A stretch of DNA of 64,000 nucleotides from Glaucostegus cemiculus (taxonomy: Eukaryota), in NCBI GenBank assembly GCA_976551045.1, contig CDPCPM010000059.1:6386001-6450000 (forward strand), read 5' to 3'. This document shows, one piece after another, positions 425 through 60,512 of this stretch. The notes under the pieces are model-generated. The model did not search any database. It had not been told where the DNA came from and was given only the letters and a program-made list of their open reading frames with translations. Within the stretch, counting starts at the first letter, position 1; each line of letters starts with the position of its first letter. The position numbers and the translations under genes are program-made.

Positions 425-770
425 TAACTTTAGTCTTCTTTAGAACAAAAAAGACTGAGGGGAAATGTAATTGAGGTGTGTAAAATTATTAGCAGCCTAA
501 ACAAATTGGATAGGGTTTCTCCTGGCAGAGATGCTCAAAGTTAATGATGGAAGGGTTAAAGGGGAGCTGAGGAAAATTAAGTACCCCAAGAGCAGTGGGG
601 ATCTGGAACTCATTGCAGGAAAGAGTGGTTGAGCCAAAAATCCTCAGCTATTTAAAACATAACTGGATAAGCATGAGAAGGACTGTAACCTTTGAGGTTA
701 CAGACCGAAAGCTGGGACTTTGGATTAACCTAACTAGCTCCAATTTTGCTGTTCCATAAATTTCTATATC
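425..770 (+). mobile_element. Decayed CR1 LINE 3' fragment
   Basis: agactgaggggaaatgtaattgaggtgtgtaaaatt...tggaactcattgc matches the CR1 ORF2 C-terminus (RLRGDLIEVYKI...WNSL) seen in better-preserved copies here. Confidence 0.6.
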
Positions 771-1874
771 CTCTGAACCTGTGATTTCCTTTGCTATGCC
801 TTCTTTCCAAAGTAAAGAGGTAAAATGGGGTAATCAATCATCTGCATAACTTACATAGCAAAACAAAGAACCAGGTGGTAATGGACCTTGATTCTGATGG
901 AATTTACACTTAATTAGTCTTTTAAAATGTAATTTTATTTAAACAATGTTTAAATTTGTGAAGCAGAAATTTTGTTTTGTTTGCAAATGTTAACAGGGAA
1001 TATGGAATAAGTTGCCTCTTTTAGTTCCTTCTTGATCTGCTTTTATGTTGATTTCATTGGGATTAAATGAAATGGTATCTTTTAAATTCCAGTGATCAAA
1101 GGTAAACTTCTGACTTTGTACATCAATGGATCAAATTGAAGTTTACTTTAAAAAGTAAAGGCACGGTGTTTCTGCTCGCCTATACATGCCCTCTTACTTA
1201 AAAACATCATTCTCTATTTTTCTTAAAAACTTCCAAGAGATGTGATCAGGAATGCAGATATGTCAGTGAGCCTTTGCTATTTCACAAACTTTAGCATAAA
1301 CTTTATATTTGCTTAGCATAAACTTTATATTCGGTTTATAATTTTCACACAGTAACTGTGCCCAATGGGGCACGATTCTCAGTGAGTTAGTTAAGGCCAG
1401 GTTTCATTCCAGTTTTACACCTTGGCGGTCTAATTTGAAATGCTCCCAAGATTCCATACAATATGTGATAGTAGACGACGAATGATTAATTTGTTCTTCT
1501 GAAATATTGTTCTGAGTAGCTTTATAGAGATTGGTATTGGTTTCTTATTGTCACAGTGCAAAACTTTTGTTTTGCATGCCATCCAGACAGATCATACCAT
1601 ACATACTTAGCAAACAATAGTTAACTGAAGTTTAACCCGTGTTTATATCTCCTAACCTAAAAGAGTGAGGCAGTGTTTGATATTTGAGATAATTTTAAGG
1701 TTTCATGTTTCAATGGCTGTAAGATCATCAGAAATTCTTGATGACAAACAAATCTGATCCTATGTAAGGAACCCCATAACTTAATATCATTTTGTATGAA
1801 CATCGCCATTTTGTCAAGAGAGATCATAAAATATAAAATGTAGAAGACACTCTACTGTGCTGAGCCAAGTTAGG

Positions 1875-2128
1875 AACATAAGAAATAAGAGCAGGAGTAG
1901 ACCATCTGGCCTGTCAAGCCTGCTCCACCACTCAATCATGGCCAATCTGGCTGTGGACTGAGCTCCACCTACCTGCCTTTTCCCAATAACCCCTAATTCC
2001 CCTACCATGCAAAAATCTATCTAACTGTGTCTTGGAATATATTTAATGAGGTAGCCTATACTGCTTTCTTGGGCAGAGAATTCATAGATTCACTACTCTG
2101 TAGGAAAAGCAGTTGCTCCTCTTCTCCA
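1875..2128 (-). mobile_element. CR1 LINE 3' end, same subfamily as 19260-19511
   Basis: Reverse complement is nearly identical to the 3' end of the long CR1. ORFs 1814..2008 and 19287..19643 share SRLDxPDGLLLLLFL. Confidence 0.85.
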
Positions 2129-2468
2129 TTCTAAATCTGCTCCCCCAAATCTTGAGGCTATGTCCCCTTGGTATATTAGAACAGTGGATTGGAAGATTGG
2201 CCCAATACTTGATTTGCAAGATCTTATTAAAAAGCCCAGGAAAATGGCTCAGTTCCCAAACAATGAAGTTCTTCAAAAAGCGCAAAAATGAAAGATATCA
2301 AAACAAAGGTTTCTGTGTAATCAACAGCTGGAAATGAATTCTTGTATGACAAGTTTCGTTTTGATAGAAGAACTATCAGAACTACGAGTGCATCTCAACT
2401 AATTTTGCATGGCATGTCTACTAAGTTTAAAAGCAATGCTTTCTAAACAGCCAGGTATTATTTTGTTA

Positions 2469-2482
2469 GTTGCCACAGCAAC
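2469..2482. promoter_or_regulatory. RFX X-box-like motif
   Basis: GTTGCCACAGCAAC versus consensus GTTGCCATGGCAAC, in non-repetitive sequence. Confidence 0.3.
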
Positions 2483-3169
2483 AGGAAAAAGATTACAACT
2501 ATCATTTCTACCCTTCAGTGGGACCCTGCTGTGTATCAAACCCATTTATTGTCCAAAGGACTTGCATCACAATCTTCAACTGACAGCTGCTGGACACACA
2601 AGTTAATCTGATTTAAGTCAGTTCATGTGGCCCAATAACACGTTTTGAAGGTGTGAGACAGAGTTCAGAGAATGAAGATTTGTTAGAATTGCTGATGCTA
2701 ACTCAGAGCCGGAAAGAGAGCAGGAGACAGGATATGGACAGGGTACCAGGAAGTGGGAATTCCTGTAGATTCTCTCAGATTTATTGGAAGAGATTGATCG
2801 TAATCTCAATGTGTTACCCACTCAATTGGCAGATAGATTGATGGACTGTTCTTATCTGGGCTTGGAATTGTAGTGAATGATAGGTAGGCCAAAATAACAA
2901 GGGGTGAGTCAGTGAGAGTATGGACATGTCAGGGTGTGACCAATCACTGAGTTTAATAGATAGCTTTGGTGAGAAGTGGTTTTGGATTACTGCTTCTACC
3001 TTGCCTAGAGCCAATACTACAATAGCATTTACCACACGTATCTGGCATCTTCTTGGACATGAGATAGAAGGTAACTACTTTATGTAGCCACCTTATCTAG
3101 TATGGTTACCATATTTAAGGTAACCATCTTAAAATATTTTGTTAATGTTCTGAAAGCAGGTTATTCACC

Positions 3170-3877
3170 CTGTGTGTGACACACTTTCATTTAAACCAAC
3201 ATTGGTTGCCTAGGATCAGGATATCATTTTTTTTTGTGTTTGGTTTTGCTTATGGTTACAGATATTGCAGCATATTGAAACAAATGTGACCTATCTTTTG
3301 GATTTGGAGGATGATCTTCAGACTTTCTGATCACTGTCAGAAAGTCCTAGGGATTCATTTTCCTCCAGGTAGATATCATCCTAATTTTTGTTGTTGACAG
3401 CTGTTGGATTCGACTGTTTTAATTAGTTTTTTAAACATGCTTTTAAACATGTTTAATACACCTCAAGTGGCAACACAAGGAATGGCCACTCACTAGCTTA
3501 TTAGTTCATCCATCATGTGAATATGTGGTTTATTTTCCATTGGCTGGTTTGGCCACAAGTGTCTAATAGGTTTCCTGATTGGACTATTGTTAGCTAAAGA
3601 GCATCTCTTATCTCAGGTAGAAAAGGTGTCATCTTTTTGTTAATCTCTCTCTTGTTACTTTCATCTTTTTGTTAATCTCTCTCTTGTTCTTCTCCCCTGG
3701 CCTGAGCTCATCTTTTGTTCCCTTTGTCTCAGCTCATCAAAGCTAGTGCCGTGTGCTCTGTGACTGTTTCTTTGTTTTAAACTTTTCCAATAAAACTTTG
3801 AAGCACCAAGTTGTTTTCAACTCATTCCTGGACTCCTGAAAGAACCTGTGGAGTCGAAAATAACTGGATCTGACACA
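3170..3877 (+). mobile_element. Possible solo LTR
   Basis: TG... start and ...ACA end, two ATTGG (CCAAT) boxes, an internal ~32-bp tandem duplication (3629-3690) and AATAAA at ~3789. No clean TSD found. Confidence 0.3.
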
Positions 3878-4060
3878 GCCACCAATCATGTGCATGAACC
3901 TCCCATCAATTATTTGCCTGAAATTTCCCACCAATCATCTACCTGACCCCCTCACCAATAATCCACTTGGAGCTCCCACCAATCATCTGACTGACCCTGC
4001 CCTCTAGCCCACCAATCATCTGACTCACACTTTACCAATAATCTGACCAAGTCCAACCTC
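3878..4060 (+). repeat. Degenerate minisatellite, unit ~ccaccaatcatctgactgaccc
   Basis: About 7 recognisable 25-30-bp units with a CCAAT core. Confidence 0.65.
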
Positions 4061-13155: not shown

Positions 13156-13745
13156 ATGGAATTCTGGTTGCCCCATTATAGGAAGGTTGTGGAGGCTTTG
13201 GAGAAAGTGCAGGAGAGGTTGACCAGAATGTTGCCTGGATTAGATGCCATGTGCTATAAAGAGAGGTTGGACAAGCTTGGGTTGTTCCCTCCGATTATGA
13301 GAGGCATAGAAAGAGTAGACAGCCGGTATCTTTTTCCAAGAGTCAAAATATCTGTGTCAGTTTGTCTCTTCTGCTTGTTATTTAATGTGACGTGCACCTG
13401 TGGAGGATGGTATCTCGCTCCTATGCATACTGTGTGTGTGTATATGGTTGTGACAATAAAATGATTCTGATTCAGAGGGCATGCATTTGAGGTGAGAGGC
13501 AGAAAGTCAGAAAGTTCAAAGATGATGTGCAGGGCAAAGTTTTTACACGGGGTGATAGTGGAGGTAAATACGATAGAGACGTTTAAAAGGCTCTTTGATA
13601 TGCACATGAATGCACAGGAACTGGAAGGTTATGGACCTTGTGTAGGCAGAGGGATTAGTTCAGTAAGGCGCTTAATTACAAGTTTAATAGGTTGGCACAA
13701 CATTGTGGACCGAAGTGCCTATTCCTGTGCTATACTGTTCTACGT
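13156..13745 (+). mobile_element. CR1 3' fragment with a nested Rex1/Babar (CTGATT)n tail at ~13350-13473
   Basis: FWLPHYRKVVEALEKVQERLTRMLPGL. The insert ends gtgacaataaaatgattctgattc. Confidence 0.8.
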
Positions 13746-14448
13746 TTGACATCTTTGAATTTTTTCCTCTATCCCCCTGGCAATCTCTTCCCACGGCAGA
13801 GCTCAGAACAGAATGTCTGTCTTGGGAATCTGGTGTCAAATTTACACTGCCTGTCCGATGTAGCTCAATGAGTGTTACTAGAATTGCAATGCTTGGTGAT
13901 GTTGGTCTGGGAGATGATACTGACATGTCAGTGTCAAGGTTCACAAAATAAAAAGCGAGACAGATAAAGAACAGCTCTTTCCACATGCTTTCAAGCTCTT
14001 TGTCAGAATTCCTTTGACTCTGATCTCTGTGACCTCAGCATTAATGCACTGACTAATAGCATTCTTTGTATAGAAATAGGCATGGATAACTATTATAATG
14101 ATATTTGCAATCATTTACTGCCTTCTGATATTTCATGCTCATGTTGCAACACATTACAAGAATTAAAATCCTCTTCTTCCTAGATGGAAGCTGGTACCTG
14201 TGGTGAGAGACGATTCACTTTGTTATATTACCTGGTGATTGAACTTGGAAGAACCATAAAATGTGACAGTGAAGTGAATTTTATAAAGTCAATCTCCCCG
14301 TGCAGAGCTTCAGTAAAGGGAGTATATGTTGGGAATTTGGATCCTGGATAGCATTTCTTTTCATAATTCTGCAAGTTAGCATTAGGAGAAAGGTTAATTT
14401 GCAGTTGGGACTTAGAGAGAGATTTGGAGTAGGAGCTTTGAAAAGAGG

Positions 14449-15155
14449 TCAGAATCAGAATCAGNNNNNNNNNNNNNNNNNNNNNNNNNNNNNNNNNNNN
14501 NNNNNNNNNNNNNNNNNNNNNNNNNNNNNNNNNNNNNNNNNNNNNNNNNNNNNNNNNNNNNNNNNNNNNNNNNNNNNNNNNNNNNNNNNNNNNNNNNNAC
14601 CGTCCTCCACAGGTGCACATCACATTAAATATTAAACAGAAGAGACACACAGACACACACTGAAAAAGAACATTAAAACCACAAAAATTAAGTTAAGTTC
14701 TGCAGCTTAAATAAATAGTTTTAAAATGAGCTAAATAGTTTCAAAATGAGCGAACTGGCGGCGGACATTTAAAGTGCTGGTGTGTTACTGAGCGTCTAGC
14801 ATCCTTTAGTGTTGGCAGGATAGATGGAGGAATGAGAGAGTTCACTGATCTGATGGCTTGTGGGAAGAAGCTATTACACAGCCTGGTCGTTCTCGCCTTG
14901 ATGCATTTGAGCCTTCTTCCCGACAGCAAGAGTGTGAAGAGATGATGGGAGGGGTGAGAAGGATCCGACATTATATTTTTGGCCTTCCTAACACATCGGT
15001 CCTTGTATATGTCAGCGATGGAGGGAAGATAGACACCAATGATCTTGTCCGCTGCCCTCACTATCCTCTGGAGGGACTTCCATCCAGCAGCTGAGCAGCT
15101 CCCGAACCAGACAGTGATACATTGAGTTAGGATGCTCTCGATAGTCTCTCTATAA
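14449..15155 (-). mobile_element. Rex1/Babar LINE 3' fragment (RT C-terminal DUF1891-like region)
   Basis: ORF 14741..15202: YRETIESILTQCITVWFG...DPSHPSHHLFTLLLSGRR...RTTRLCNSFFPQAIR, with a (CTGATT)n tail. Confidence 0.85.
14465..14598. other. Assembly gap (run of N)
   Basis: 134 consecutive N. Confidence 0.99.
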
Positions 15156-15677
15156 AGTGAGTCTCTGTGCTTGTGAGTTTTACCTTGCAAGAGTCTAAAC
15201 AAGGCACATTTTCAAATTGTTAATAGTTGATTGGCTAATTAACAGCAGCCAATAAAAAAGAAGGTAGGGTCAAGCATTGTTGGAGTGGGAGACTGAGGTT
15301 TTGATGGGAAGAGGCTGAGTAAGTGGTTTAGGTGAGCAGCTCTTTTTAATAAAAAGGTTTCAGTTAGAAAGAGTTTTGGGAATGAGAGTGGGAGAACTGA
15401 AAAAGAGGTGAGTCTCCTTGCTTGTGAGTTTCATTTGTGGGAATTTAGGAGGTAAGTCAGTTAATTGTTAGTTAATAAGTGATTGGCTAATTATCAGCAG
15501 CTAAAAAAAAAAGAAGTTAGGGTCAAGTGGAGTGGCCACTTTGAGAGGGGGCTGCTGTCTAGTCAAAGTGCTACTGGTTGCCCAAGTGTGGGCTTTGCTG
15601 AGGAGGGTGAGCAATACTAAGGTAAGGTGAGGAAGGTTCTTATTCTACTTTTTATTTTTCCCTCAAAGCTTTTAGTC

Positions 15678-29299: not shown

Positions 29300-30700
29300 C
29301 AGTCGCCAGTCTTCAGCCAGCTTGATTCACTGTTTTCACATGATATCAAGTAGCATCTGAAAGTAATGGATACAGCAAAGGCTGCAAAACCAGAAAACAT
29401 TTCAATGCATTACTGAAGCCCTGCATTTCAGAACTAATTACACCTCCAGCCAAGCTGTTCCAAATCAGTTACAACACTGGCATTTACTGCCCCCTTCATT
29501 AAAAAAAAGGACAAATCTACTCAATTCCCCACCCCCATCAGTTTATTCTCAATCCTCAGAAAAGCGATGGAAGCTGTCAGCAGTAGTGCTATAAAGTGGC
29601 ACTAACTCACTAATTACCTATTCACCAGTCCCCAATTTGCCTGTATCACTCACATCCAGACTTCATCTAAACATCCATCAAAGAGATGTACCAGAGAGGA
29701 GGTGAGAGTGACTGCCCTTGATATCAAGGCAGCTTTTGACCAAGTGTGACATCGAGGCAGCCTAGTAAAACTGGTCAATGGGTTCCAAAGGCATAACTGT
29801 CCAATGGCAGAGTCATATCTTGCAGAGGCCAAGCTTCTTACCTGCCTTGCAGTGTTTGGCCAGTGATCTTCCTTCTGTCATTAGTTTGTACATGAGGATG
29901 TTCACTGATGGTTGCACAACATTTAATTGTATTTGCAACCTATGGCCTTTACCACTAAGGACAAGGGCATATATAGAGAGGGTGCAGAGGAGGTTTACAA
30001 GGATGCTGCCTGGAATGAGGAGCATGCCTTATGAGAGCAGGTTGCGGGAACTCAGCCTTTTCTCCTTGGAGAGAAGGAGGATGAGGGGGGACCTGATTGA
30101 GGTGTATAAGATGATGAGAGGCATTGATAGGGTAGATAGTCAGAGGCTTTTCCCCAGGGCTGAAATGGTGGCCACAAGAGGAAATAGGTCTAAGGTGCTG
30201 GGGGGAAGATATATGGGAGATGTCAGGGGTAAGTTTTTTACTCAGAGAGTGGTGAGTGCGTGGAATAGGCTGCCGGAAATGGTGGTGGAGGCAGATACGA
30301 TAGGGTCTTTCAAGAGACTGTTGGATAGGTACATGGAGGTAAATAAGATAGAAGGCTATGGGTAAGCCTAATAGTGTGGGGACATGTTCGGCACAGCTTT
30401 GTGGGCCGAAGGGCCTGAATTGTGCTGTAGGTTTCTATGTTCTATGTTCTATCAGGTGCATGAGAACACCACCACCTACAAGTTAACCTTCAAGTTACAC
30501 ACGATCCTGACTTTAACATACTGTATTATCGCCGGTCCTTCATCTTCACTGGGTCTAAATCCTAGAGCTCCGTATCTACAGCACTGTGGGAGTACCTTCA
30601 CTAGAAGGACTGCATCAATTCAAGAAAGTGGCTTGCCACCACTTATTGAGGCCTGGGTAATAAATCCTGGTTTCTTGTTGACATTCAGATCCTAAATATG
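29300..30700 (+). mobile_element. Ancient CR1/L2-superfamily LINE RT remnant, interrupted by a young CR1
   Basis: DTAKA..PENI; AKLFQ.SYNTGI; ALDIKAAFDQV. The 3' tail resumes at ~30455. Confidence 0.65.
29970..30452 (+). mobile_element. Young CR1/HER1 3' end
   Basis: Open frame IERVQRRFTRMLPG...RGDLIEVYKMMRG...FFTQRVVSAWNRLP...EGYG, ending in (CTATGTT)n. Confidence 0.92.
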
Positions 30701-45380: not shown

Positions 45381-46350
45381 ATAGGCCAAATGATTGATGG
45401 ATCTCTAGCTTTGAACTTCATCCATCTAATGTGTTTATTTTAATACATTTAATTTGCAGTGCTGTGCGTTAAGACAACAGGAATGGTACAGCTGATTGGG
45501 CATTGAACAATTAGCTCTTATAAAGGGATCACAGAGTGAATGTCTTCCTATTTTGCTGCATCATTCTATTGTATGACAAAAATCAAAAACTGTAAATGCT
45601 TCCAGTGTACATGTGGGTCTCTCAACAAAAATGGGTTAGTGTCTATGGGATAGGACTTTAAAATGAGATGTAGTTAACACTTAAGGTGGGAATTATATAG
45701 AAGTATAATATATAAATGGGACCACCCTGTTTTCAGAGGTTGTTACCAATTCATTCCAGCAGCTTCTCATGACTGGCCTCTCCTTAGAATGGTTTGGTTC
45801 CACAGGTTTCAATAGTTAATTCCACCAAGAGACAATTCTTTGTTGTGATCTGTTCAGTGAGCATTAGCAGAAGATGGGCCAACCTTTCAAATGAGCTACA
45901 AATCCATGAGCTTGGGTAAATTATAAACAGAGGAGTGTGTTCCCAAAATAGGGCACTGGTCTGCTGTGAACAGATAGTCATCAGGTAGTCCCAAAATTAC
46001 AAAGAGAAAAGTCAACATTGAAGGCAGGGCAATTATCGTCCAGGTATTGGTACTTCAATGCATTTTGCAACATTTGAAGTCCCTGGTACCTCCATCTTTC
46101 TAGTAATGATTCAGATTTACCCTGGTTTGCTTTATTTTAATGATTGAAGTATTTATGATTTATCTGAACCCATGAACGCTACTATCTCGTTATTCCTTTT
46201 TTTGGCACTATTTATTTATTTTTGAAATTTATAATAACTTTATATCTTTGCACTGTACTGCTGTCACAAAACAACAAATTTCACATTGTATAAGTCAGTG
46301 AAAATAAATCTGATTTTATTCGAAATAAATACAATTTGCTGGCTTCCATT

Positions 46351-47256
46351 TCAGAATCAGAATCAATTTATTGTCACTTTCACGTATACATGAAGGCGAG
46401 ATATCGTTTCTCCACAGGCCAATGTGCAAAAGACATTAAAGACAATAAAGGACAACGGGACAAAAACATCAAAACATTAACAGCCCCCCAGCCTCACCCC
46501 GCACCGACGACCACCTCCAACCCCCGCAGTCCTACAACCTCAGGGCCCACAGTCCATCAACAACCTCCGGCCTGCAGTCCGACAGTCCGACCACCTCCGG
46601 CCCCGCAGTCCGACCACCTCCGGCCCCGCAGTCCGACCACCTCCAGCCCCGCAGTCCGACGACCTCCAGCTCCTTTGCCTCTGGCCTTGCAGTCCGACCA
46701 CCTTCGGCCCCGCAGTCCGACGACCTCCGGCTCCTTCGCCTCCGGCCCCGCAGTCCGACGACCTCCGGCTCCTTCGCCTCCGGCCCCGCAGTCCGACGAC
46801 CTCTGGCTCCTTCGCCTCTGGCTCCGCAGGCTGACGACCTCCGGCCCCGCAGGCCGACAACCTCCGGCTCCTTCGCCTCTGGCTCCGCAGGCCGATGACC
46901 TCTGGCCCCGCAGGCTGACAACCTCTGGCTCCTTCGCCTCCGGCTCCGCAGTCCGACGACCTCCAGCCCCGCAGGCCGACCACCTCCGGCCCGAGCAGCC
47001 CCCTCACTGCCCGCATCCCGATGCCACCACGAGGCTGCAGGGCCTTCGACACGCTGTTGCCTCCGATGAGCTCCGACGAGCCGTCGGAGCCGTCAGTACA
47101 GACAACGACTCCATAAAACGAACACCAAGCACACAAACATCAGGAGCAAAGAACACACAAAAAAAAAAGCACAAAAAAACACTAAAAGACTAACAAAAAA
47201 GCACAAGCACTACAGACCTGGGAGAGGCCGCTGCAACTATGTGCGCCGCCATCTTG
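46351..47256 (-). mobile_element. Non-autonomous element with GC-rich VNTR and Rex1/Babar 3' tail
   Basis: The minus strand starts CAAGATGGCGGCG and ends cctgtggagaaacgatatctcgc...gtgacaataaattgattctgattctga. Confidence 0.75.
46495..46992 (+). repeat. GC/CpG-rich VNTR (23-bp gcagtccgacgacctccggcccc plus 15-bp ggctccttcgcctcc subunits)
   Basis: Directly visible tandem units. Confidence 0.95.
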
Positions 47257-47414
47257 AATTTCCTTCCTTTGCATAATTTGGATGGTATTTGTCTTTTACA
47301 CACATGTTTCAAGACCTCTTGCTTGTGCCTTTGAGTATTTAAACTCCCCATTACTGCAGTTTCTTTATTCTTCAGAGGAGTTTCATTCTGTTCCCTCACC
47401 TTAGTGAAATATAA

Positions 47415-47750
47415 GAAATAGAAACAGGAGAATGCCATTTGGTCCCTCATGTCTACTCCAGCAATAAGATCGCAGTTGGCTTTTTACCTCAGCAACACTC
47501 TGCTGCAAAAATTCCATATATTTTCATTTCATTAATATATAAAATTCTAGTGATCTGTTTTGAAAATACTCAATAATTGAGCCTCTACAACTCTTTGAGG
47601 CAGAGAATTCCATGGGTGCATCACCGTCTGACTCCCGAATAGCTGAACCCTCATTCTGAGACTGTGACCCCTGGTTCCAGATACCCCAGCCAGAGAAACA
47701 TCAACTGTGTCCTGTCAAGCCCCATAAGATCTTACATGTTTCAAATAGAG
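47415..47750 (-). mobile_element. Decayed CR1 3' end
   Basis: ataagaaatagaaacaggagaatgccatttggtccctc...ggcagagaattcca. Confidence 0.6.
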
Positions 47751-48122
47751 ACCAGGCCAGCTGGGTAAGTGAGTTGCTCTGATTCCAAGTTTGTCTGAGA
47801 TAACTTTACTTTCAAACCTTTGTTTTGTTTTAATCATGCTCCTTCAATCATACTGCACTGAATTATTGATTCCAGGCACAACACAATTATCATGTGTGCT
47901 CTAGCGATCATTTTTTCATCATTGAAATTAACATTTTTAATCATGCTTTGGTAAATTATTGATCAGTCTTCGTATTGCAAATATCAGTTCAATCACACCG
48001 GAATGAATAGTTGTATCTCATGAAGATATCTCTGTCATTGAAGCCCAGATAAATTATTCCACCTAACTCATTCTTTCTCTACCCAACAATAATGGCACAG
48101 AATAGGTGGGGATTAATTAATC

Positions 48123-49165: not shown

Positions 49166-51115
49166 ATTGGTAAATTAGTAAATTGGTTTATGGTGCCAGA
49201 GCGTGGTGATGTGTTTCAAGCTGCTCTCTGCATATCAACTCATTACTTTTACACTTTCTACACTTATAAATTTAAATTCTATTTCCCTAAGTATTGCTAA
49301 TAATGTTCCCTGTAGCTGTGACACTTTAATCTGTATTCTGTTATTTTACCCTGTACTACCTCAACGCACTGTGTAATGAATTGATCTGTATGATCTGTAT
49401 GCAAGACAAGTTTTTCACTGTAGCTTGGTACAAGTGACAATATACCAATACCAACATTGTTTTGCATGCCATCCATACAGAACCATGAAATCCCTCATCC
49501 CTCATCCCTCATCCCTCCATCCCTCCCGCCAACACCAAAGGATGCTAGGCGTACAGAAATGCACCAGCACTTTAAATATCCATTGTCTGCTGCCTCAGTA
49601 CGCTCACTTTAAGATTGTTTATTCGAGTCGGTATTTAATTTTGTGGTTCCAATGTTGTTAATGTCTTTCTGTCTTTGTGTCTCTCATTGTTTTTTTTATG
49701 TGATGAGCACCTTGATCTGTGGAATACGGTATTTCGCTCCTATGCATGCTGAATGTGTATATAGTAGTGACAATAAAACTGATCCTGATTCTGATTACAA
49801 CAGTGTACTGAGGTAGTACAAGGGAAAACAATAACAGAATGAAGAATAAAGTGTTACAGTTTCAGAGAAAGTGCAGTGCAGGCAGACAATAAGGTGCAAG
49901 GCCATAATGAGGTAGATTGTGAGGTCAGGTGTCCATCTTATTGTACTAAAGGAACATTCAATAGCCTAATAACAGTGAGATAGAAGCTATCCTTGAACCT
50001 GGTGATATGTGCCCTCAGGCTTTGGTATCTTCTGGCCGATGGGAGTGAAAAGAAGAGAGAATGTTCATGGAGAGTGGGGTCTTTGATTTTGTCGGCTGCT
50101 CTACTGAGGCAGCAGAAGTGTAGACAGAGTCCATAGAGGGAAGCCTGGTTTCTGTGATGTTCTGAGCTGTGTCTATAACTCTGTGCAGTCTCTTGCAGTC
50201 TTGGGCAGAGCTGTTACTATACCAAGCTGTGATGCATCCAGACAGGATGCTCTTTACAGTGCCTCTATAAAAATTCGCAAGGGTCCAAGGGGAGGTGCCA
50301 AATTTCTTCAGTCTCCTGAGGAAGGAGAGGTGCTGGTGCACTTTCTTGACCATAGCATCAATGTAGTTGGACCAGGATGGGCTATCAGTGATATTCACTC
50401 CTAGGTACTACCCTCTTGACCTTAGCACTGTTGATGTAAATAGAAATGTGGTCACCTCCCCCTTCCTGAATTCAATGACCAGATCTTTTGTTAACATTGA
50501 GGGAAAGGTTACTGTCATGTCACCATGTCACCAAGCTCTCTATCTCCTTCCTGGACTCCAAATCATCGATATTTGAGATTTGGCCCACTATGGTGGTTTC
50601 ATCTACAAATTTGTAGTTGGAGTAAGAGCAGAATCTAGCCACACACCTGTGGGTGTATCAGGAGTAAAATAAGGGGCTGAGGATGCAACCTTGTGGGACA
50701 TCAGTGTTGAGAATAATCGTGGCACAGGTGTTGCTGCCTATCCTCACTGAATGCAGTCTGTTGGTCAGGAAGTCAAGGATCCAGTTGCAAAAGGGAGGTA
50801 TTGTCTCAGGTCGACAGCTAGGTGGTTGAAGAAAAATTTGCTTAGAAATATGGTACTGTAGGTGCAGCTGTAGTCAATAAACAGTAGTTTAACATACTAT
50901 AGGCGTCTTTACTGTCCAGATGCTCCAGCAATGATTGTAGGGCCAGGGAACTGTTTCAGAGGGAGGGAAATTGCAATGGGTCAAAGTTATCCTGGAGGCT
51001 GGAGTTGATATGTGCCATGACCATCCTTTTGAAGCACTTCATGGTGGATGTCAGATCCACCAGGCGGTAGTCATTAATGCATGTTACCTTATTTTTCTTA
51101 AGTACCGGGATGATA
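49166..51115 (-). mobile_element. Rex1/Babar LINE RT fragment with two nested opposite-strand Rex tails
   Basis: ORF 50015..50398: SWSNYIDAMVKKVHQHLSFLRRLKKFG...FYRGTVKSILSGCITAWY. Inserts at ~49195-49455 and ~49490-49796. Confidence 0.82.
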
Positions 51116-55414: not shown

Positions 55415-55935
55415 AACCATAGAACCATACAGGCCCTTCGGCCCTCCATGTTGTGCCGTCCATCAAACCTCACACAATCTAACTCTTTCCTCCCACATAT
55501 CCCTCTATCCCACATTCCTCCATGTGCCTATCCAACAATCCCTTGAAGCTGTCCAACGGATCGGCCTCCACCACCACCCTAGACAGCGCATTCCATGCAC
55601 CAACCACTCACTGGGTAAAAAACCTCCCTCTGACATCTCCCCTGAACTTTCCACCCAATTCCTTAAAGCCATACCCTCTTATCTTGAGCACCTGTGCTCT
55701 GGGAAAGAGGCACTGGCTGTCAACTCTATCTATTCCTCTCAATATTTTATACACCTCCATCAAGTTCCCTCTCATCCTCCTCCTCTCCAACAAGTAAAAC
55801 CCTTGCACCTTAAGCCTCTCCTCATATTCCATACCCTCTAATCCAGGCATCATCCTGGTAAATCGCCTCTGTACCCTCTCCAATGCCTCCACATCCTTCC
55901 TATAATGTGACGACCAGAACTGAACACAGTACTCT
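55415..55935 (-). mobile_element. Young CR1/HER1 3' end
   Basis: EYCVQFWSSHYRKDVEALERVQRRFTRMMPG...RGRFFTQ. Confidence 0.9.
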
Positions 55936-55939
55936 CCTT

Positions 55940-56226
55940 CCTTGAAGATTAAGGTGAGAGGTGAAAGTTTTAATAAGAACTTGAGGGGCAACTTTTTTAC
56001 TCAGCAGGTGGCAGATATATGGAACCAGATGCCAGAGGAAATAGTTGAGGCAGGTACATTAGATACCTTGAAGAAGTATGTGGACAGGTATGTGGATGAC
56101 AAGAGTTTAGAGAGATATGGATCACATGCTGGGAAATGGGATTAGCTTGAATATACATCTTGGTCGGCACAGACATGTATGGGCTGAAGGGCTTGTTTCC
56201 GTGCTGTACAGCTCTGTGACTCTATG
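55940..56226 (+). mobile_element. CR1/HER1 3' end
   Basis: LRGNFFTQQVADIWNQMP...ERYGSHAGKWD. Confidence 0.85.
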
Positions 56227-59214: not shown

Positions 59215-60512
59215 GGCTGATTAAGGATAGTCAGCATGGCTTTGTGCGAGGTAGATCGTGTTTAACGAATCTTGTTGAGTTTCTTGAGGAGGTCACCAAG
59301 AAAGTAGATGAAGGAAAGGCAGTGGATATAGTCTACATGGACTTTAGTAAGGCCTTTGACAAGGTCCCACATGGGAGATTAGTTCAGAAGGTTCAGTCAA
59401 TGGGTATCCATGGAAAGGTTGTAAACTGGATTCGAAATTGGCTGAGTGGGAGAAGACAGTGAGTGGTTGTGGATGGTTGTTTCTCAGATTGGAGGCCTGT
59501 GACTAGTGGTGTGCCTCAGGGATCTGTGTTGGGACCATTGTTGTATGTTGTATATATCAGTGACCTAGATGATAATGTGGTAAATTGGATTAGTAAATTT
59601 GCGGATGACACGAAGATTGGAGGTGTAGTGGACAGCGAGGAAGACTTTCAAAGCTTGCAGAGGGATTTGAACCAAATGGAAAAATGGTCCAGAGAGTGGC
59701 AGATGGAATTTAATGCAGAAAAGTGCGAGGTGTTGCATTTTGGAAGGACAAATCAAGGGAGGACTTACACAGTGAACGGTAGGACACTGAGGAGTGTGGA
59801 GGAACAAAGGGATCTGGGAGTTCAGGTACATAATTCCCTGAAGGTAGAGTACAGGTAGACAGGGTTGTAAAAAAAAAGGCTTTTGGCATCCTGGCATTTA
59901 TAAATCAAAGTATTGAGTTGGAATGTTTTGGTAAGGTTGTATAAGTCATCGGTGAGACCAAATTTGGAATATTATGTGCAGTTCTGGTCGCCAAACTACA
60001 GGAAGGGTGTCAGTAAGATTGAAAGAGTGCAGAGCAGATTTACTAGAATGTCGCTGGGTCTTCACGAGTTGAGTTACAGGGAAAGATTGAGCAGGTTAGG
60101 ACTTTATTCCTTGGAGCAGAGAAGAATGAGGGGAGATATGGTAGAGGTTTACAAAATGATGAGGGGCATAGACAAGGTTAATGCAAGTAGGCTGTTTCCA
60201 CCTAGGTTAGGAGAGATAACTACGAGAGGACAAGACTTTAGGGTGAAAGGGGAGAGGTTTAGGGGGAACATTAGGGGGAACTTCTTCACTCAAAGAGTGG
60301 TGGGAAAGTGGAACGGGCTGCCATCTGATGTAGTAAATGCAGGCTCACTCTTAACTTTTAAGAGTAAATTGGATAGATACATGGACGAGAGAGGTCTGGA
60401 GGGGTATGGGCTGGGTGCAGGTAAATGGGACTAGCAGAATAATGTTTCAGCACAGACTAGAAAGTCTGAATGGCCTGTTTTCCTGTGCTGTAGTTTTCTA
60501 TGTTTCTGTGGT
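59215..60512 (+). mobile_element. Young 5'-truncated CR1/HER1 LINE (RT domain to 3' end)
   Basis: SQHGFVRGRSCLTNL; DFSKAFDKVPH; GVPQGSVLGPLL; KFADDTK; GLEGYGLGAGKWD. Only a few stops and frameshifts. Confidence 0.95.

Follow-up and report, generated by a model that had tools for sequence, protein, structure and literature searches.

The minus-strand element that runs from 47256 to 46351 of the window (the whole 64-kb stretch of DNA analysed here) is best explained, with a probability of about 0.7, as a bipartite, ORF-less and non-autonomous derivative of a Rex1/Babar LINE (a SIDE) carrying a VNTR. It is composed of a start motif, a T-rich leader, ~120 nt of GC-rich DNA, a ~500-bp array and a LINE tail (Table 1). 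Judged by sequence comparison, a single LINE clade, Rex1/Babar, has given both ends. About 145 nt of the parental 5' end and about 140 nt of the 3' end are kept, and the ~3-kb EN-RT ORF is swapped for the GC-rich segment and a two-unit VNTR. As a tandem repeat stands in place of the enzyme gene, the enzyme of the parent Rex1 must be borrowed for movement. Three of five SIDE features were found in the element, namely a 5' end of the partner clade, a 3' end of the same clade and no RT coding.

Both ends of the element are complete, and one copy was seen in the 64-kb window. No second copy of the head or the array was detected in the window, or in protein sets, GTDB contigs and phages, collections that hold hardly any vertebrate non-coding DNA. 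We give somewhat less than an even chance to the broader proposal that the element represents an undescribed multi-copy family of Rex1-derived retroposons in a fish (probably cartilaginous) genome, which would be transcribed by Pol II and whose GC-rich central array would be variable. Elements with this layout are presumably common in shark and ray genomes.

Table 1. Position of the parts of the element and of the Rex1 remnants that share its tail type.
Feature	Position in window	Strand	Basis or remark
Candidate 5-bp TSD, GAAAT	5' copy 47258..47262, 3' copy 46352-46348	-	Weak; 5 bp is reached by 4.4% of random flanks
Rex1/Babar 5' terminus: YY1-consensus start motif and second conserved block ~8 nt downstream	47212..47257	-	Presumed internal Pol II promoter and transcription start
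T-rich leader, like Rex1 5' UTRs	47110..47211	-	T fraction; alignment to Rex1 loci
GC-rich, CpG-rich segment, origin unassigned	46991..47109	-	No match to Rex1 proteins or loci
Tandem array of two subunits, A (23 bp) and B (15 bp), first 8 nt common	46490..46990	-	AAB/AB higher-order blocks; 3' end degenerate
Rex1 3' UTR portion, including 5' arm of conserved tail hairpin	46378..46489	-	Aligns with 13.4- and 49.7-kb tails
Terminal motif with AATAAA, followed by a hexamer microsatellite tail of about 2.5 units	46351..46377	-	Tail pattern
5'-truncated autonomous-type Rex1 copy, same tail type as element	14449..15160	-	N gap inside; ties tail to RT-coding LINE
Tail-only Rex1 remnant, same tail type, within CR1-type fragment	13353..13476	+	Tail alignment to element
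Rex1 remnant (ORF end and 3' UTR), same tail type	49484..49794	+	Tail alignment to element

Origin of the two ends

The preliminary description of this DNA had reported a YY1-type start on the minus strand followed by a T-rich leader, and both were recovered. The motif lies at 47256-47245, where it is the sole exact match in the window, and the leader (~47200-47110) contains 67% T over 60 nt. The motif is identical to the YY1 site described for mammalian L1 starts (PMC5381506), and the YY1-consensus start of the element is a putative YY1 site. On its own the motif is not rare, a 9-mer match being obtained in 12 of 100 window shuffles.

The SVA-like composite of that description, understood as carrying a borrowed head, is not supported: comparison with Rex1 loci shows that Rex1 LINEs natively open with this start motif and a T-rich leader. 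Sixteen loci were obtained from 151 pattern matches, as apparent host DNA inside bacterial (GTDB) assemblies, and five of them extend to the N-terminal region. Three of the five (L002, L004 and L013) open with the same motif and a T-rich leader, with T fractions of 0.67, 0.52 and 0.43 respectively as compared with 0.67 in the element. L001 has no motif within 700 nt upstream and looks truncated, and the 5' part of L003 is cut off by the contig end. In L004 the motif is found at 509, followed by a single intact 975-aa ORF (599-3526) and a microsatellite tail; in L002 it is found at 65, with an intact ORF of 1043 aa. The motif occurs four more times in the 97.7 kb of loci, each time without a T-rich leader.

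Similarity past the core motif was assessed at both the DNA and the protein level. With shuffled sequences as reference, DNA similarity was modest for L002 (31 of 2000) and not significant for L004 (296 of 2000) and L013 (96 of 2000). A profile made from these three heads ranked 47256-47213 first in the window, weakly (E 0.18), and a blastn comparison of the element with the 16 loci produced no match at E<=0.5. Among 122 proteins, eight reach the basic N-terminal motif and two of these start with a peptide resembling the translated first bases of the element. A search with the N-terminal region yielded 11 proteins among 186 candidates, and the head is present in 10 of the 11: nine proteins carry it in one reading frame and P0126 in a second, and P0130 begins downstream. 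The sequence upstream of the head is unrelated among P0070, P0124, P0125 and P0126, which indicates that the head marks the LINE boundary.

When the core motif is kept constant, 3-6 changes suffice for the following 24 nt of the element to encode the cyprinid Rex1 peptides, versus 11-12 in shuffles. In this conditional shuffle, 1 to 29 of 20,000 sequences did as well (P about 1e-3 to 5e-5); the peptide match had been spotted by eye before testing, and the 10 head proteins are close kin and not independent. We rely on it in preference to a regex shuffle (2 and 5 of 200,000), the patterns of which were picked after the match had been seen. A protein HMM of the fish heads missed the element, BLOSUM scans ranked it first with only 1 of 10 head peptides, and a degenerate head pattern had 0 matches in GTDB contigs. 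The head homology covers no more than ~36-45 nt and a low-complexity leader, and the relatives come from other hosts. No ribozyme or structured-RNA signal was found at the 5' end. As a by-product for annotation, divergent Rex1 LINEs share a YY1-consensus start and a T-rich leader that mark their 5' boundary.

The GTDB species-representative assemblies concerned (L001-L014, L016) contain apparent animal host DNA with Rex1-type LINEs, a probable contamination. At L013:129-1210, an intact 5' head is followed by a match to query residues 172-697 that occupies only 870 nt, which suggests one more Rex1 copy with an internal deletion.

At the 3' end, the terminal tail pattern of the element was found three times in the window and in 0 of 100 shuffles. 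The preliminary description had matched this end to Rex1/Babar tails at three places. The last ~135 nt of the element indeed align with the 13.4-kb tail (87/136, 64%) and with the 49.7-kb tail (96/146, 66%), both with 0 of 500 shuffles as good. The third place, 14449-14615, is mostly occupied by a 134-N gap and its alignment to the element is weak (48/78, 9 of 500 shuffles). The UTR of this 14.6-kb copy is itself homologous to the 13.4- and 49.7-kb tails and is joined to an ORF end with RT+PF09004 relatives. Besides the 13.4- and 49.7-kb tails, six were compared in the same way: the neighbouring tail gave 0 of 500 and the 57-kb tail 1 of 500, and four, the 14.6-kb tail included, were weak, with 9 to 72 of 500. 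A consensus tail hairpin of 15 pairs, 2 of them with compensatory changes, was derived from three sequences; single-sequence tails fold no better than shuffles (z -0.41 to -1.51). The local copies are just ~65% identical to the element in the tail, so that its true partner subfamily is absent from the window.

The tail-sharing copy at 14449..15160 was used to place the partner. It is matched by 176 of 498 candidates at E<=0.001 and, among the matches listed, almost all are RT+PF09004 fish proteins; it is 77% identical to P0008. More generally, the best relatives of the LINE proteins of the window bear fish names. In a C-terminal tree of 108 columns the 14.8-kb copy falls in no well-supported group, with a warning of long-branch joining. 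Its identity to cyprinid proteins is 60-62%, versus 27-32% to L002/L004. As the copy that shares the tail is closest to cyprinid proteins and the head fits best to the cyprinid type, both ends of the element point the same way. Pfam RT+PF09004 were identified in 4 of 4 proteins of the partner clade, and EN in L002 and P0116. The name Rex1 follows from motif blocks that match REX-11_DR, REX-14_XT and REX-15_XT, by eye only (supplement of PMC3708506).

Other LINE sequences surround the element, decayed LINE pieces being scattered across the window. An older Rex1-type 3' tail at 46150-46330 (+) lies tail-to-tail with the element, ~30 nt apart, and aligns at 69/104 (0 of 500 shuffles). The 134-N assembly gap at 14465-14598 falls inside a Rex1 tail, at its hairpin/dinucleotide-repeat region. 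At least three further LINE tail types (at 315, 8173, 12139, 25436, 32606, 43774 and 57418) combine an AATAAA-containing motif with differing 5-6-bp repeats. Those at 25.4 and 57.4 kb stand behind Rex1 coding remnants, which shows that several Rex1 subfamilies coexist. CR1-type LINE fragments are located at 13476-13750, 29769-30434, 55608-56000 and 59463-60434, with an RT domain at 59463-59855, and the 13.4-kb Rex1 tail lies inside one of them.

The central segment and coding capacity

The window has a GC content of 40.7% and a CpG o/e of 0.22. Within the element, the region 47000-47130 reaches 62.6% GC with a CpG o/e of 1.08, and the array 71.8% GC with a CpG o/e of 0.94, its sense strand being 49.5% G. 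The richest 500-bp tile in CpG contains 56 in the element, versus 16 for the best tile outside it. The ~500-bp two-subunit GC-rich VNTR that had been announced was confirmed. Between 46990 and 46602, 19 regular units follow one another as AABAABAABABABAABAAA, 13 of them 23 bp long and 6 of them 15 bp long; four degenerate units come next and extend to about 46493.

From intact CpGs the array had been called young. The CpGs are not intact: among 64 consensus CpG sites, 44 are intact, 16 have become TpG/CpA and 4 carry a G variant, as compared with 10 changes (5 of them transitions) in 261 non-CpG sites. CpG transitions are thus in ~6-fold excess per base. An excess of CpG deamination is the pattern of methylated DNA, and the array is probably methylated and decaying. 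The related proposal that the element deposits CpG-island-like DNA holds for composition only, with 16 of the 64 CpGs deaminated. The low non-CpG spread fits an array that is fairly young or homogenised.

The ~120-nt GC-rich segment and the array had no match among Rex1 proteins or loci. The GC-rich segment contains short words resembling the repeat units and is possibly the seed of the array. The array is flanked at either end by an identical 8-nt G-rich word (47003-46996 and 46488-46481, minus strand), a possible trace of its insertion or expansion. A 16-bp x 2.9 repeat precedes the LINE start at L004:331-377 and has a short word in common with the array, on the opposite strand; the repeat probably belongs to a neighbouring element and the shared word is taken as chance. 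A degenerate array of 4.8 units of 24 bp, most of which include a CCAAT-like word, was also seen at 3879-3994 of the window. No canonical G3 quadruplex motif is present in the element.

The absence of RT coding sequence, as previously described, was confirmed: the five ORFs of the element gave 0 Pfam matches and tblastn of the 122 proteins against it gave no match at E<=1e-3. We attribute the long open frames across the array to the scarcity of stops in a GC-rich repeat. No further copies of the 299-aa plus-strand frame were found among 8,000 scored candidates. The 199-aa minus-strand frame had two matches in 1.84 billion representatives; one was an unrelated repeat protein and the other a HEAT-like repeat protein, and both were set aside because the similarity is compositional. 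The best ESM Atlas score was 0.79, at lead level only. One weak GC-rich match of the element to phages was rejected, and two distant RT matches of a Rex1 protein to plasmids were irrelevant.

The lack of a tRNA head was equally borne out. ARAGORN detected 0 tRNA genes in the window, Rfam gave two chance-level snoRNA matches in 45500-48000, and no Pol III A/B box was found within 1 mismatch of the consensus. The first 200 nt of the element contain five runs of at least four T.

Proposed mobilisation and alternative explanations

Transcription by Pol II is proposed because Pol III boxes are absent and T runs come early. It would start at the inherited YY1-consensus 5' terminus, homologous to Rex1 heads and presumably active as a promoter, and would yield a ~0.9-kb non-coding RNA. 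The EN-RT of an autonomous Rex1 would bind the 3' hairpin and microsatellite tail of this RNA and insert a copy in trans by target-primed reverse transcription; here the tail homology is observed, and the mechanism is drawn by analogy with established L2/CR1-group SINE-LINE pairs. Being short, the element is copied up to its very first base, whereas the Rex1 coding remnants in the window all start past residue 550 of ~960-1010 and are 5'-truncated. Insertion may have been accompanied by a 5-bp duplication: no clear TSD had been seen previously, and the GAAAT candidate is a weak one, its length being reached by chance at the rate given in Table 1. After insertion the array would have been methylated, and its CpGs have decayed. 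Growth of the array most likely took place in a master copy, through slippage or unequal exchange. A non-autonomous element with a Rex1/Babar tail and no Pol III head makes mobilisation in trans by Rex1 likely, presumably as a unit. These features are what is retained of the composite retroposon mobilised by Rex1/Babar that was initially put forward; the SVA-like patchwork with a borrowed head is not.

A one-off deletion copy is a rather unlikely alternative. The GC-rich VNTR would then be native to the local autonomous Rex1, placed in the 5' UTR or at the beginning of the ORF, and the element would be a single internally deleted insertion and no member of a family that propagates itself. The single copy seen in the window is consistent with this, tandem repeats and CpG islands are known from L1 5' UTRs of other vertebrates (PMC5381506), and the Rex1 coding remnants of the window give no full-length local copy for comparison. 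The native Rex1 head also comes close to the internally deleted LINE against which the preliminary description had weighed its proposal. However, the VNTR is absent from the 5' UTR and ORF of the autonomous relatives read: their 5' UTRs are short (90 nt in L004 and 144 nt in L002) and have no such array between head and ORF, an argument limited by their other, probably distant hosts. The array therefore replaces the ORF and is not a standard part of these relatives; it remains an added or lineage-specific part. Moreover, neither junction retains a trace of the ORF.

We hold it improbable that the element arose as a single chimeric insertion, in which a Rex1 enzyme would have jumped template from the tail to an unrelated minisatellite RNA and then to a Rex1 5' end, or in which a minisatellite would have expanded in place after insertion. 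Template jumping has been proposed for the origin of SIDEs (PMC6740152), and this explanation would account for the 8-nt word on both array flanks and for a middle segment with no known source among Rex1 proteins and loci. Two jumps are needed, though, and both ends must be restored in order. In addition, AAB blocks share non-CpG variants and CpG changes are scattered, which fits an array older than the local decay.

An SVA-like composite of independent modules, made of a captured YY1 promoter, a VNTR and a borrowed LINE tail, is very improbable. Its architecture and GC-rich multi-unit VNTR do resemble SVA/LAVA (PMC4432496), but one LINE clade is the source of both head and tail, and the head homology largely refutes it; the SVA modules are all absent, and mobilisation would be tail-specific and not by L1. 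Finally, a host-gene CpG-island promoter or the retrocopied start of an mRNA, lying by chance upstream of a LINE tail, is hardly credible: an ATG does lie within the motif, which reads M-A-A and is not rare alone, but its frame stops after 20 codons, the CpGs are decaying, the homology to Rex1 heads runs past the motif, and no host gene was detected nearby (59 hand-picked ORFs, most from a set of 296, gave only 2 sub-threshold Pfam matches).

Comparison with known systems

The Rex1-derived, ORF-less reading places the element among the SIDEs. Like Persaeus and the RTE-N, Vingi, RIME and R2 types, it combines 5' and 3' ends of one clade with no ORF and no Pol III head. In the accessible text of Kojima 2018 (PMC5786205), only RTE, Ingi, Vingi and R2 are listed as sources of ORF-less bipartite elements; Wang 2019 (PMC6740152), where SIDEs are called rare, added the CR1-derived Persaeus (from CR1 Zenon). 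The parent of our element, in contrast, is Rex1/Babar. The centre of Persaeus is unrelated to its parent, a precedent for the middle of the element. This middle is a ~500-bp two-unit VNTR, whereas the word "tandem" does not occur in the accessible text on Persaeus, and the element is ~0.9 kb long versus about 0.27-0.32 kb in rows of the Persaeus table (PMC6740152).

Autonomous Rex1/Babar LINEs (L002 and L004; P0116, P0070 and P0008) have the start motif and T-rich leader in common with the element, and their 3' UTR ends, like that of the element, in an AATAAA-containing motif and an oligonucleotide repeat (PMC6274825). They carry a single EN-RT-PF09004 ORF, which the element does not, and its array has no counterpart in the relatives read.

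The use of a LINE 3' tail is shared with tRNA-headed SINEs, such as HE1/HER1 of sharks and rays and SINE2-5_NV with Rex1-24_NV, the latter pair making Rex1 a known tail donor (PMC3747384). Unlike these, the element has no tRNA head or A/B boxes, and its T runs from +57 would stop Pol III. Having no Pol III head, it is outside the SINE class.

SVA, LAVA, PVA and FVA are also non-autonomous, with a GC-/CpG-rich central array of ordered subunits (PMC4432496). The element lacks their CT-hexamer, Alu-like head, SINE-R and poly(A), its units are of 23 and 15 bp versus 30-50 bp, and its partner is Rex1 and not L1 (PMC4432496). With a Rex1-derived 5' end and a hexamer microsatellite Rex1 tail, it is outside the SVA class, and the resemblance to SVA/LAVA is analogy, not homology.

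We found no account of a bipartite or VNTR element derived from Rex1 in the open-access literature, a scope that makes this absence weak, and if the family is abundant, automatic repeat libraries probably include it under a generic label. Should the element be just one deleted copy, it would be an ordinary fossil. If it belongs to an undescribed multi-copy family, no bipartite ORF-less derivative of Rex1 would have been reported before it, and it would parallel SVA/LAVA by convergence outside primates; CpG-dense minisatellites with a built-in YY1-type promoter would be scattered through a CpG-poor genome. A Rex1-derived SIDE with an ordered two-unit array would extend both the list of SIDE clades and the statement that VNTR composites are hominoid-specific (Lupan 2015, PMC4432496). 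Such a family would allow an independent check on whether the mobilisation of non-autonomous RNA is aided by a central VNTR, as reported for LAVA.
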